A stretch of DNA of 35,026 nucleotides from a virus (taxonomy: Duplodnaviria; Heunggongvirae; Uroviricota; Caudoviricetes), in the IMG/VR virus record IMGVR_UViG_2698536657_000017, positions 1 to 35,026 of that record. One strand, given 5' to 3'. This document shows positions 12,001 through 18,000 of this stretch, piece after piece. Made by a program: the position numbers. How positions within the stretch are numbered: the first letter of the stretch is position 1; the number at the start of each line of letters is the position of its first letter.

Positions 12001-15000
12001 TGAGGGAGTTCGCTTCAACAGCCAGCAAAATTATAACGGGCGCATGTTCCAGTCTCTTTATGCCCTGGCGACCGACGACAAGGGAGAACTGTGTTACCTG
12101 CATCAGACATTGCTTGATGGAGCTAAAAAAGCAGACATTGGTATCAGCGCCAGAAGGCTCAAATCTTTACAGGACGATAACTATCTGGACCATGCCCGGT
12201 CAGTTGCTATCAGGATGTTTCCGGTAGCCAGTACACTGGGTATAGCTGAAGGTATCGAAACCGCGTTGTCCGCACATCAGATTTACAAAGTAAATACCTG
12301 GGCAACCATTAACAGTGGTTTTATGAAAAAGTTCCGCGTACCGGCGGGAGTCACCCATCTGATTATTTTTGCCGATCGCGATGAATACAGTGCTACCGGA
12401 ATGGCTGCGGCCTGTGAATGCGCACATGCAAATCTCCAGGCCCGAAATGACATTCAGCGGGTAAGTGTCCGGTGGCCTGATCATGATGATTTCAACAATA
12501 TGCTCATGAACGGCGATCAGGTTCGGGAACTGGTTTTTTACAGAAAAAAGGCGGTTGCGTGATGCGTACGGACAATCAGGTACATAAAGCTTTATTCACT
12601 ATCCCGACGGCAGCGTACAGCGCCGTTCCGGCAAATATCAAACCTCTGCCAGAACAAAGGAGGATCACCGGACATAAACAGACAGATGCTTATCTCTGGA
12701 TTCTGGAGGTTATTCACCTGAACGAGGCCGTACATCTGGACGCAGCCGAAGCAGCACTGGAGAAACTCAAAATAACGCCGGAAGAAGCGAGTGAACGGTA
12801 TGGACGTTATTTGCAGGAGATTAATGTTGATCCTTTCCAGATTGCTTTCGCAACCATAGGCATAGATAACCCGGCGCAGGCGATCAGGAATGCCCGTGAG
12901 AATATCAAAAAAGCCGCATCAGTCAGGGCCACATTTGGCAGCTATGAGGCAGCACTCGATGATGTGGAGGCTGAGCGGATAATTCGCACCTCCCCGAAAT
13001 TTATCGACGATTACTACTGGGGCTGGACTGCGGCAGAGAAAAAAGCCGGAAGTATTGACGGTGTTCGCTCAAATGAAATTGATGATCAGCGTCGTGCATA
13101 TGTTGATGGCTATCGTGATGTACTGCCAGAGCCTCATACATTGTCAGACGTTGTTCGTGAGTTTATTTACTGGGACTGGCTTTATGAGATGCGCCAGACA
13201 GCGGGGAGAGAAACAGGGGACAAATACGGTTTCACAGGTGAACATCATGAGTCAGTATATGATCGGCAGTTCTGGCTCGAAAATTTGCTGGGAAAAATAA
13301 AGCCTGTGACGCGTGATGAAGCGGTTGAAGTGTGTCGCTGGTTTCTGGCAAGCGGAAAAGATGAGTACATGGAAGACAATGGTTCAGCGGTCATTCTCAA
13401 TCTGGTTGGGGAGTGTGAGCAATGAAGCCGGAGATATCCAGTAGACATTTTCCCCCTGAGCATTCAAATCAGAAAAAGTATGGTTACAGCGGAGTACAGA
13501 ATAATGCGTGATATCCAACAGGTTCTGTCCCGATGGGGTGCATGGGTGGTAAATAATCATGAGAGTGTGGCATGGTCCGGCGTCGCTGCCGGATTTAAGG
13601 GAGTGATCCCATCAAAGGTTAAATCACGGCCTCAGTGTACCGATGATGATGCGCTGATTATCAGCAATTGCATGGCGCAACTGAACGTCAACAACAGCGA
13701 TTTGCATGATTTTCTGTATGATTATTATGTGTTCGGGATGACGCTTATGGGACTGGGCCGTAAGCATGAGCGCTCTGATTGCTGGGCCGGGCGGGTACTG
13801 CAAAAAGCTGAAGGTGTTATTGAGGGGATGTTGATTATGCAGGGAATAAAACTGGAAATGGACAGATACGTTGAGCGTGAACGATCAGGGGCACAGGTCA
13901 GTCAGTTTTCCGGACATACGGGAAATTGAAAGCGCGGGGTTTTACTGTAGAATGACTGCGGGTGCTTGAGGGTGTCTGCCTCGGGCATGCTGCCGTAAGG
14001 CAGACGGAGAAAAGCCCCAGTTAACATTACGCGTCCTGCAAGACGCTTAACATTAATCTGAGGCCAATTTCATGCTGAACACATGTAGGTTAGCCTCTTA
14101 CGTGCCGAAAGGCAAGGAGAAGCAGGCTATGAAGCAGCAAAAGGCGATGTTAATCGCCCTGATCGTCATCTGTTTAACCGTCATTCTGACGGTACTGGTA
14201 GCGAGGAAAGACCTCTGCGATGTACGAATCCGAACCGGCCAGACGGAGGTCGCTGTCTTCGTAGACTACGAATCTGAGAAGTAAGAGACCTGGCGGGGGA
14301 GTAATCTCCCGCCCCCTCTGATGTGTCAGGCATCCTCAACGCACCCGTACTTTAGTTGTCATATGCTCCGCAAAATGCAGGTTGTCGTTGCAACCCGTGC
14401 GGTAATTTTTTGTGTGCGAGTGCTCAAAAAACGTTGATTTTCATAAAAGGACGATTTTATGCTGCCAGACCAGCGACCAGCGACCAGCGACCGTAAATCA
14501 AGAAAGTCTGTAAAATCTGTTGAACCAGACATTGCCGACCGGGCTAACAACTGGCTCAAATCTTATGGACTTGATTACAAACTGGAGCAGGCACCACTTA
14601 ACAACGAGATCGATAACGCACTGGATGCTTATTTTTCGAAAAATGGCGGCACAGGCGGTAATCGTCCCGACGTAAAACTCCTTGTTCAGGACAAATACGG
14701 CAAGCAGTATCCCGTTCTCATCGAGTATAAAGGCTACAAGGACAGGCTTATCAGACTTGGCAGCAACGGTATTATTGAGAACAAAGATGCCAGAAAAGAA
14801 TGGAATTTTAAAAATATTAATGGATACGCGGTGAATGGCGCAGTCCATTATGCCAACGCACTTCTTCAGTTCACCAATTACCCTGATATTATTGCTATTG
14901 GTATGACCGGCTGGCGCGATGATGGTACAGGCGAACTGCATCATGAAATCGGCGTGTGGTACGTATCAAAGAATAATTTAGGAGCCGGGCAGAAGGTTGG

Positions 15001-18000
15001 TGAATTCACCGACTTATCGTTCCTTGCTGACAAAAATGTTGATGGATTTCTCAACAAGATAAAGCTGCTTAATCTTCCTCCCGAAGAACTGGAAAAAATC
15101 AAGGCCAGCAAAGAGGAAGAGATAGACACGCGACTTTCCCGTCTGAATAACGATATTTACCAGAATGAAAAGGGGCTTGGTGAAAGCGATCGTGTTTACC
15201 TTGTTGTGGCTACCGTTATTGCAACGTTGGGGATTCCGGGAAAGTTAGCACCGCTGGATAAAAAAGAACTGACCTCTTCAACGGAGGAGGACTTGCGTGA
15301 TGGTGATATTATTTTCAGGAAAATAAGGAATTTTTTAAGGCTGAAAGCTGTTCCTGAAACAAAAAGAGAAATGATTTTGCGCTCGTTGCAAAATACGCTG
15401 TGGACTGAAAACATTAACAAACCAGTCAACGGTGAAAGCCAGTTAAAGCGCGTGTTTGTTAAAGTTGTTGATGATCTTGGGGAGTATTACAAAATCGGAC
15501 TGACCACTGATTTTACGGGCAAACTGTTTAATGAGATGTATCGCTGGCTTGGATTTACGCAGGACAAACTCAATGACGTCGTTCTGACACCACCTTATGT
15601 TGCCACATTGCTGGCACGACTCGCCAGAGTAAACAAAGATTCCTATGTGTGGGATTTTGCTACAGGTTCTGCGGGATTGCTTGTGGCTGCAATGAATGAA
15701 ATGCTCATTGACGCCAGAGAAAATATTCACTCACCGAATGAACTACAACTTAAGGAAGCGCAAATCAAGGCTGAACAGCTTCTTGGCCTTGAGGTGTTAT
15801 CCAGTATTTATATGCTGGCCATCCTGAATATGATTTTGATGGGGGATGGTAGCTCGAATATCCTCAATAAAGACTCGCTAGCCGATTTTGACGGCAAGTA
15901 TGGATTTGGGAAAACAGGAGAAAAATTCCCTGCGGACGCATTTATTCTCAATCCTCCGTATTCAGCTAAAGGTAACGGCATGATTTTCGTGCAGAAGGCG
16001 CTGTCGATGATGGATAAAGGCTATGCTGCAGTGATTATCCAGAGTTCAGCCGGCACAGGAAAGGCTACGGAGTACAACAAAAAAATACTCAAGGAAAATA
16101 CCTTGCTGGCAAGCATCAAAATGCCTGCGGATCTGTTTATTGGTAAATCAAGCGTTCAGACGTACATTTACGTTTTTCAGGTAAAAATTCCGCATAACGC
16201 GAAACAGGCTGTTAAGTTTATCGACTTTTCCAATGACGGCTATGCTCGCTCTAATCGCAAAAAGGCAAGAAACAATCTTGTTGATGCCGATCGTGCAAAA
16301 GAGCGTTATCAGGAGGTTGTGGATCTGGTTCACTTCGGGAAAGGTTGCCTTAATATCTTTACGGAGGATGAATATTTTGAGGGAACAATCGATCCTGATA
16401 GTGGTGAGGACTGGAATCAGACCAGGCCAGTAGATGCTAGGCCAACGCTGGATGATTTCAAAAAGACGGTAGGTGATTACCTTGCATGGGAGGTCTCGCA
16501 ATTACTGAAAAAACAAGGTGAAAACAATTTTGCGGGAAAGTAAATTCCCCGCTCAGCGATAAATTAAGAAGCGTTGAGTGGGGAGAGTTCAGGATTGGCG
16601 ATTTGTTCTATGTGAGCACAGGCTCGCTTATCTCCTCAGGAAGATTAAAACCAGGCAAAATTAAACGTGTTTCAGCAAAGAGCGATCAAAACGGTATCAT
16701 CGGAGAGTTTGATACCGAGTTTATGGATGATGCAAGGCATTATGAAAATTTTATAAGCGTTAATTTTTTTGGAGATGCTTTTTATCATCCTTATTGTGCC
16801 AGCGTAGAAATGAAGGTGCATGTTCTTACATTAAAATCAAGTAAGTCCGACTTTAATGCAAAGCGCGGACTGTATGTTGCCAGTATGATTAATAAAGCTT
16901 TAAAGGGGCGTTTTAATTATGGTCAACAGTTATCGAGTTCCAAACTCAGAGATGGAGAATATTTCATCTCATTACCAGTGAAAAATAATGAAATTGACTG
17001 GTTTTTTATGGATAATTATATAGAAGAGCTGGAAGCGGCCCATATAGAAGAGCTGGAAGCTTACTTGCTGGTTAGCGGACTCGCGGACTCGCGGACTCGC
17101 GGACTCGCGGACTCGCGGACTCGCGGACTCGCGGACTGATAAGCTATGAGCTTACACCGCAGGAATATAACGCGATTGAGCTATTAAATAGCAATAATCT
17201 TATGTGGGGCACTTATAACCTCAAAAAGTTATTTGGCCCCGCAATAAGAGGTAAGCGTCTGAAAAACGCAGATCGTATTCCCGGATCCTTGCCTTTTGTT
17301 ACTGCGGGTGAAGGCAATGAAGGTATTTCTGCATTTATCAGTAATGATGTTGTTGTATTCCCTGAAAATACCATTACGATAGATATGTTTGGCTCCGCAA
17401 AATACAGAAATTATGAGTATGGTGCAGATGACCATGTGGCAGTTGTTCATACAGAATTCTTTGACAGAAATGCCGTTATTTTCATAACAGCATCAATTCA
17501 TAAGTCTTCTTGTACCGGAAAGTTCAACTACGGGAGAAATTTCTATGCAAAAGATGCCGACGAGTTAATGGTATCTTTGCCGTCAAAAGATAATAACCCT
17601 GATTATTCTTTCATGGAGACGCTAATTTTAGCAGTACATAAACTGGTCATCAAAGATGTTGTCCAGTACACTGATAAAAAGCTGGTAGCGTACAGGCAGA
17701 TTACATCTGAGAAGGTCGTTTAGTGCAAATCCCCACCTGACAGGGTGGGGAATGGTCAGGTTATCGTGCCCTGATGCAGAAAAACAGTTTACAATCGTAA
17801 AAATCATCATATCATGACAAAAGTGGTTACATTGCCACGCAGCCGAACCCGCCGATGCGCGGGTTTTTTGTATCCGGAATCCTGTGAGTTATACGGAAAG
17901 TACACAGAAAGGAAGGTGCGACCGCAATTAATAACAAAATCTTAAAAATTGCATATGGCACTATTAGTTTTCTAAATATTGTATATTTTGAGTATTGCAG

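Follow-up and report, generated by a model that had tools for sequence, protein, structure and literature searches.

Which enzyme is encoded by two adjacent genes in the cargo region of a lambdoid Escherichia coli prophage, and what is the effect of the perfect repeats that lie within them? The locus belongs to the viral record IMGVR_UViG_2698536657_000017, of which a stretch of 35,026 nt was analysed (the window). Its first gene, referred to here as RM, encodes a 694-aa fusion of a nuclease and an N6-adenine methyltransferase, and its second gene, S, encodes the specificity subunit. As described below, the two genes probably form a BcgI-like restriction-modification system (Type IIB or multimeric Type IIG) that is carried as prophage cargo and switched by its repeats. 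The enzyme type is itself known, and databases already list it from E. coli prophages, although the Type I names used there are misleading.

The features of the two genes, including the target recognition domains (TRD1 and TRD2) and conserved regions (CR1 and CR2) of S, are the following. Repeats were called with Tandem Repeats Finder (TRF).

14459-16543, + strand: RM gene, 694-aa nuclease and N6-adenine methyltransferase fusion (open reading frame (ORF) call)
14468-14492, + strand: heptanucleotide repeat (GACCAGC)3 + GACC, 3.6 copies, starting 9 nt past the ATG at 14459 (TRF, 100% perfect)
14507-15073, + strand: PD-(D/E)xK nuclease domain, residues 17-205
14669-14671, 14723-14725 and 14729-14731, + strand: catalytic candidates D71, E89 and K91, respectively, identified together with E22 by conservation
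15446-16288, + strand: HsdM-like methyltransferase domain, about residues 330-610 (Pfam N6_Mtase, E 5e-21; PADLOC MTase_I, residues 330-603)
15656-15676, + strand: motif I, FATGSAG, residues 400-406
15950-15961, + strand: motif IV, NPPY, residues 498-501
16603-17139, + strand: 5' part of S, TRD1 and the central helix CR1 (Pfam Methylase_S, E 6e-10; PADLOC Specificity_II, E 5e-20)
17020-17061, + strand: 24-nt in-frame CR1 repeat (IEELEAAH / IEELEAY), 2 copies (read directly from the sequence)
17075-17137, + strand: octanucleotide repeat GCGGACTC, 7.9 copies, between CR1 and TRD2 (TRF, 100% perfect, score 126)
17202-17723, + strand: 3' part of S, TRD2 and CR2 (PADLOC Specificity_II, E 4e-16)

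The nuclease-methyltransferase fusion and its relatives

The 694-aa product announced in a preliminary description of this DNA is confirmed by the ORF call. The PADLOC model REase_MTase_IIG (PDLC03616, Type IIG restriction enzyme-methyltransferase) spans RM end to end, from residue 17 to residue 686, with an E value of 7e-234, and a second Type IIG nuclease-methyltransferase model, 637 positions long, matches RM at E 7e-45. By comparison, RM scores 35.9 bits against TIGR00497, the NCBIfam hsdM equivalog, whose cutoff is 242.75; thus, it is not a classical Type I M subunit. Furthermore, the AlphaFold model of full-length RM (pLDDT, the predicted local distance difference test, 82) aligns in Foldseek over 674-689 columns with RM of BsaXI, which is a Type IIB enzyme, and also with BpuSI and DrdV. 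The end-to-end Type IIG profile, the full-length BsaXI fold match and the hsdM score under its cutoff all agree with the earlier proposal of a BcgI architecture in place of a Type I one.

The methyltransferase had been placed in the gamma class on the basis of FATGSAG followed by NPPY, and both motifs and the Pfam N6_Mtase match bear this out. A profile search of PDB sequences matches this domain to the M subunits of StySJI and EcoKI, and Foldseek matches it to HsdM structures.

For the N-terminal region, a nuclease had been proposed from the motif NRPD-x18-EYK. The motif is present, with a spacing of x17 and not x18 between D71 and the E89/K91 pair. Residues 17-205 are modelled confidently as a PD-(D/E)xK fold (pLDDT 93.7), with the nuclease domains of HsdR, BpuSI and DrdV as its best matches, while residues 1-16 are disordered (pLDDT 35). 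RM residues 15-340 were searched against 1.8 billion representative proteins, which yielded 564 relatives. In 14 homologues with 39-65% identity, E22, D71, E89 and K91 never vary, and alignments that extend to homologues of lower identity (29-65%) show the same four residues unchanged, along with an SK-GG-G loop and an A-NGA-Y helix. Such a fold, combined with invariant E, D, E and K in distant homologues, points to selection for catalysis. The suggested nuclease is therefore borne out both at the level of the fold and at that of residue conservation. It should be noted that a PDB sequence search with RM gives no match and that the profile search of PDB sequences returns HsdM proteins only; the nuclease assignment thus rests on fold and motif conservation and not on sequence similarity to a solved nuclease. 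A second protein-database search, with the diverse alignment as its query, returned one 71-72% identical clade only, with no added diversity; one of its members is labelled Clostridiales.

Type IIB enzymes, BcgI among them, are defined biochemically by cutting both strands on either side of a bipartite site, by a 2RM:1S stoichiometry and by a requirement for both subunits in cleavage as well as methylation (PMC3874165). In BsaXI, cryo-electron microscopy reveals an (RM)2S assembly, and mutagenesis places the nuclease site at E73, D90, E105 and K107, which are conserved across Type IIB enzymes (PMC11997821). The system described here resembles BcgI and BsaXI in its RM fusion (an N-terminal PD-ExK nuclease joined to a gamma-class N6-methyladenine (m6A) methylase), in its lack of HsdR and, in those related loci where S is a single ORF, in its separate S of TRD1-CR1-TRD2-CR2 layout, and differs from them in being prophage-borne and in carrying frameshifting repeats in both genes. 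Sequence similarity between BsaXI and this RM is undetectable in the profile search of PDB sequences. Since RM has 694 aa compared to 914 aa for BsaXI RM, the extra elements of BsaXI are probably absent, as judged from overall length and not residue by residue. By analogy with BcgI and BsaXI, we expect two-sided cleavage, the defining property of Type IIB, and the same subunit stoichiometry.

RM is 72-73% identical, over 98% of its length, to a 686-aa protein of Neisseria and a 679-aa protein of Providencia. In Neisseria flavescens, lactamica and polysaccharea, the RM gene (72-73% identical) is followed by an S gene of 357-365 aa. NgoAVIII is likewise described as BcgI-like and consists of RM plus S (PMC6789123, PMC3874165). 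Unlike the present locus, the Neisseria RM-S pairs are chromosomal, located between housekeeping genes, and have neither heptamer nor octamer but only an in-frame 24-nt CR1 repeat. RM and S without HsdR are also found in other E. coli prophages and in a Salmonella prophage. No HsdR-like gene adjoins RM-S in any context examined. In the window, the sole helicase (9934-11592) belongs to the replication module, beside a toprim primase, so the absence of HsdR stated in the preliminary description holds.

Heptamer and octamer tracts in the two genes

Among 5,426 complete E. coli genomes, about 30 have the system, and 17 of these loci were read together with 20 contigs from the viral collection. The ATG and the AAGGA Shine-Dalgarno sequence that precede the heptamer are conserved in every related locus examined, and RM is full length from this ATG only if the number of heptamers is a multiple of three, which is the case for 7 of the 19 perfect tracts. 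Three units amount to one DQRPATS heptad, added to the N-terminal tail that is disordered in the model. RM is in frame in the window, where the tract has three units, and L039, an 82%-identical relative, is in frame with a degenerate three-unit tract. The Neisseria and Providencia homologues have an N-terminal tail without the repeat, and the conserved protein starts at KS(V/I)EP. Consistent with variable tract length, the in-frame products found in protein databases contain DQRPATS heptads in many different numbers. Where the tract is in an OFF frame, RefSeq gives products of 570 or 653 aa from internal starts, in which some or all of the nuclease core would be missing; because these are named 'HsdM family methyltransferase', the nuclease domain is hidden from view. 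A search for the ATG-plus-heptamer pattern among species-representative genomes gave no match.

The opposite strand of long GACCAGC tracts is annotated in RefSeq with ORFs named 'YXWGXW repeat-containing protein' or 'hypothetical protein', which are artefacts of the repeat. They include 3060-3752 (- strand) of L003 and its equivalents in L004-L006, L010 and L014-L017.

The second tract divides S. The preliminary description had claimed a specificity gene with two TRD-like halves; both halves are present with Specificity_II matches, but in the window they are not one ORF, being split by the octamer and placed in different frames. The 5' part ends at the TGA at 17137-17139, just past the tract, and the 3' part starts at an ATG (17202) with no obvious ribosome-binding site, out of frame with the 5' part. 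Both halves are open without further stops, and the rest of RM is likewise intact. When octamer copy number is simulated, only multiples of three yield a full-length S; at other numbers it stops at the TGA-TAA directly after the tract or four codons after it. For the S of the window, the loss of one unit or the gain of two fuses the 3' part to the 5' part. TRD1-CR1-TRD2-CR2 is in fact a single ORF in L006, L007, L039 and L041, and RefSeq lists a single S protein of 375 or 381 aa for L006 and L007, both with 6 octamer units. A PDB sequence search with the reconstructed full-length S gave no match.

The frame of the 5' part is open from 16543, and its first canonical start is the TTG at 16603, with AGGA 8 nt upstream. 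This TRD1 allele lacks a canonical start 5' of the conserved N-terminal VEWGEFRIGDLF motif (16543-16612 in the window), and RefSeq places the S start of related loci at the equivalent of the GTG at 16612.

The S gene is modular, with two TRD1 and two TRD2 alleles recombined in three combinations, and the octamer is confined to one of the TRD2 alleles. In addition, the 24-nt CR1 repeat varies in copy number: 3 in L006, 2 in L007 and 2.8 in the one Salmonella locus examined, while Neisseria CR1 has an analogous AELEARRT repeat with 2.2 versus 2.6 copies. Such changes may lengthen or shorten the spacer within the recognition site. EcoR124I and EcoR124II are distinguished by how many copies of a 12-bp repeat their central regions contain, and the possible change of spacer length through CR1 resembles their switch. 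In NgoAV, specificity changes through an hsdS frameshift.

Among the loci read, perfect heptamer tracts have 3, 3, 9, 9, 16, 16, 19, 23, 23, 30, 31, 34, 50, 54, 64, 80, 82, 83 and 99 copies, and octamer tracts have 4, 6, 6, 6, 7, 8, 9, 16, 16, 23 and 26 copies. Three Okinawan bovine isolates (L001, L007 and L008) share the same flanking and coding sequence (100% identity over 3.46 kb), and their heptamer/octamer counts are 23/23, 30/6 and 23/8, respectively. Tracts of strains whose flanks agree fully over these 3.46 kb are 7 to about 50 units apart. Similarly, strains from healthy humans in Germany with identical flanks have about 92 (interrupted, G1/2), 83 (G6/7) and 99 (G8) heptamers. Being 100% perfect and length-polymorphic across otherwise identical loci, the two repeats are not there by chance.

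The low-copy heptamer tracts (3, 3, 9 and 9) are all in frame, and the octamer tracts are in frame, with S full length, only at 6, 6, 6 and 9 copies. The octamer tracts of at least 16 units all truncate S, and long tracts are mostly out of frame. This pattern could arise from expansion after the gene is off, or from selection against long in-frame inserts.

Proposed switching and competing explanations

We propose, on the model of BcgI and BsaXI, a complex in which one S of TRD1-CR1-TRD2-CR2 layout is bound by two RM subunits. This (RM)2S complex would recognise a bipartite site through S and methylate an adenine in each half of it; unmodified DNA would be cut on either side of the site, at fixed distances. 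Slipped-strand mispairing in the heptamer would turn RM translation on and off, with ON at multiples of three, while slippage in the octamer would make S either a complete subunit with both TRDs or a half-subunit of TRD1-CR1 only. TRD1-CR1 of BsaXI alone, combined with RM, has a new palindromic specificity, AC N5 GT (PMC9159934), and hence the octamer may switch specificity rather than merely inactivate S. On this scheme, the window would have RM ON, with a short and relatively stable tract of 3 units, and S in the half-subunit form (7 units). Should this form act as the engineered TRD1-CR1 of BsaXI does, it would form dimers that retarget the enzyme to a palindromic site. The proposal likewise includes reversible switching within a clone, activity of truncated S and expression in the lysogen. 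Overall, a defence system of this kind can probably switch on, switch off or change its target.

Several points weigh against this reading. Of the 19 perfect heptamer tracts, 7 leave RM in frame, which is close to the one-third expected if there were no selection. The long octamer tracts (16-26 units), all of which are out of frame, could also reflect neutral expansion in a dead gene. Exact frames in L004, L005, L010, L011 and L015 are unreliable owing to obvious long-read errors inside the tract. In gonococci, the intact BcgI-like system NgoAVIII gives no detectable methylation (PMC6789123). A promoter scan between hok and RM gave no signal exceeding the shuffled expectation, and RM-S may be read from the Q-dependent late transcript alone, which would be puzzling for a defence system. 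Moreover, S is truncated in this window, and the system may simply be inactive here.

The last point leads to the strongest competitor, namely that this particular prophage carries a dead remnant, in which a frameshifted S leaves RM without a recognition subunit and the repeats are drifting neutral microsatellites. It would account for the split S of the window, for the truncation of S in 7 of the 11 octamer-bearing loci, including all with long tracts, for an in-frame fraction of about one-third at both repeats, and for the IS1 found between RM and S in L004. Yet the remainder of RM and both halves of S are intact with no other stops, and both tracts are still 100% perfect, as expected of actively slipping repeats. 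In-frame states are found at heptamer counts of 3, 3, 9 and 9, in the degenerate three-unit tract of L039, and at octamer counts of 6, 6, 6 and 9. The BsaXI half-subunit is active, and neuO, a gene of the same design (see below), switches functionally. Decay in this prophage is therefore unlikely in our estimate, though it deserves to be taken seriously. A second alternative retains the switching and removes the nuclease: the locus would encode an M+S methyltransferase of Type I style, its nuclease non-functional, that acts as a phase-variable epigenetic regulator (phasevarion) and not as a restriction enzyme. In its favour, RefSeq names the genes of all related loci 'HsdM family methyltransferase' and 'restriction endonuclease subunit S', the methylase core and S are Type I-like, the OFF-frame products from internal starts (570 or 653 aa) would be devoid of part or all of the nuclease core, and NgoAVIII-like enzymes have been proposed to be maintenance methylases (PMC6789123). 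We regard it as quite improbable given the confident PD-(D/E)xK fold of the N-terminal 200 residues, with E, D, E and K invariant down to ~30-40% identity, an hsdM equivalog score far under its cutoff, and REase_MTase_IIG as the best full-length profile.

Finally, the differences in repeat length might be artefacts of assembly or sequencing. Some tracts do contain clear long-read errors (a poly-C run, 6-nt units), and short-read contigs end within the heptamer tract. Nevertheless, closed genomes from different laboratories and platforms differ by 7 to >70 units, the variation concerns two independent tracts, and databases hold in-frame proteins with many DQRPATS heptad numbers. An artefactual origin is thus hardly credible, and we retain the repeat-switched BcgI-like system as the preferred explanation.

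Known repeat switches, Shiga toxin prophages and genomic setting

The preferred explanation can be compared with known switches driven by repeats. To our knowledge, repeat-driven phase variation is rare in E. coli, which is not regarded as a contingency-locus species, and neuO on prophage CUS-3 is the well-known exception. In this E. coli K1 prophage, the start codon of neuO is closely followed by 2-93 copies of the heptanucleotide AAGACTC, and the gene is ON only if their number is a multiple of three (PMC3046976). Three units give one heptad; the heptads gained in this way are disordered and modulate activity (PMC3046976). Like neuO, RM is E. coli prophage cargo with a post-start heptamer (here 3-99 copies, heptad DQRPATS) that follows the multiple-of-three rule. 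The two differ in the repeat unit (AAGACTC versus GACCAGC), in the product (a capsule O-acetyltransferase versus an RM enzyme), in the type of phage, and in the presence here of a second repeat in the partner gene. If the proposed scheme is correct, the heptamer may also tune RM through its N-terminal heptads, as in NeuO.

A REBASE survey flagged 7.8% of hsdS genes for repeats with a unit length not divisible by three (PMC7383803), and the present locus is similar to hsdS, hsdM and mod slippage systems in that non-triplet repeats there give ON/OFF or specificity switching (PMC7383803). It differs from them in the unusual length of its tracts, up to ~700 bp. Furthermore, those systems have a separate R subunit, whereas nuclease and methylase are one polypeptide here, so that switching ON delivers both activities together. 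For the same reason, turning RM ON or changing the specificity of S in an unmethylated genome raises the question of how self-restriction is avoided.

As in a contingency locus, perfect non-triplet repeats lie inside the coding sequence of both RM (14468-14492) and S (17075-17137). Searches of the open-access literature, which excludes REBASE and most subscription journals, found neither these repeats nor a phase-variable BcgI-like system of any kind described. The Type IIG enzyme of an O111 methylome paper was considered and set aside, as it is a different system encoded in a four-gene operon. It is possible that the repeat tract is already in use as a typing locus. We suggest, tentatively and with somewhat more doubt than conviction, that no earlier repeat-driven phase-variable restriction-modification system has been described from E. 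coli, and none of BcgI-like Type IIB from any organism, this one being a double contingency locus in which the heptamer gates RM and the octamer toggles S between an asymmetric and a palindromic site, mobile on lambdoid prophages that include Stx1- and Stx2-converting ones. If this is so, clonal populations of enterohaemorrhagic or enteropathogenic E. coli would be mixtures of cells differing in restriction barriers and m6A methylomes. A second E. coli case after neuO would also mean that the carriage of such switches is a general strategy of temperate phages.

RM-S lies directly upstream of stx in three related prophages, namely L008 (5932 onwards, Stx2), L009 (5877 onwards, Stx2b) and L011 (5805 onwards, Stx1c). 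Related prophages have Ile/Arg/Arg transfer RNA (tRNA) genes downstream of S, and in L008 and L009 this cluster lies between S and stx. Given its position between Q and the tRNA-stx cassette in several strains, RM-S belongs to the late transcription unit that drives Shiga toxin expression, and the late transcript that depends on Q can reach stx only through RM-S and its repeat tracts. In Shiga-toxin-producing E. coli, the locus may also influence superinfection, gene flow and the heterogeneity of methylomes. The window has no stx, and a tRNA search found no tRNA genes within it.

The genes and signals surrounding RM-S in the window are listed below.

13480-13929: Q antiterminator
13926-13953, + strand: pR'-like late promoter, TTGAAA-16-TAGAAT, 10/12 matches, just 3' of Q and 5' of hok, RM and S
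14072-14284: Hok
17845-17866, + strand: terminator-like hairpin 3' of S (consensus scan, pattern match only)
18080-18298, - strand: 72-aa ORF matching DUF7661 (E 1e-28), between S and the esterase gene
19158-21068: sialate-esterase-like gene
21765-21980: P21-type holin, with lysozyme and Rz next to it

The cargo position given in the preliminary description, between Q and the holin and after hok, is therefore correct. The pR'-like promoter is proposed from its position, since promoter-like sites in total are not above the shuffled expectation.

Some minor observations concern other genomes. In L004 (strain 2015C-3121), the IS1 element between RM and S is an IS1A at 4442-5139, and the heptamer tract holds a long poly-C run that is probably a long-read artefact. 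Among species-representative genomes, GCGGACTC-like patterns are found mainly in GC-rich Actinomycetota and in a GC-rich metagenome-assembled genome with degenerate satellites, all of them apparently unrelated to the octamer of S. Degenerate satellites of this kind are present in the metagenome-assembled genome CAZRFD01 (labelled Enterobacterales, a label that looks doubtful) at L047, L054, L057, L063, L064, L073 and L082. Lastly, the position taken by the DUF7661 ORF in the window (18080-18298) holds an IraM anti-adaptor gene, tRNAs or stx in related prophages.

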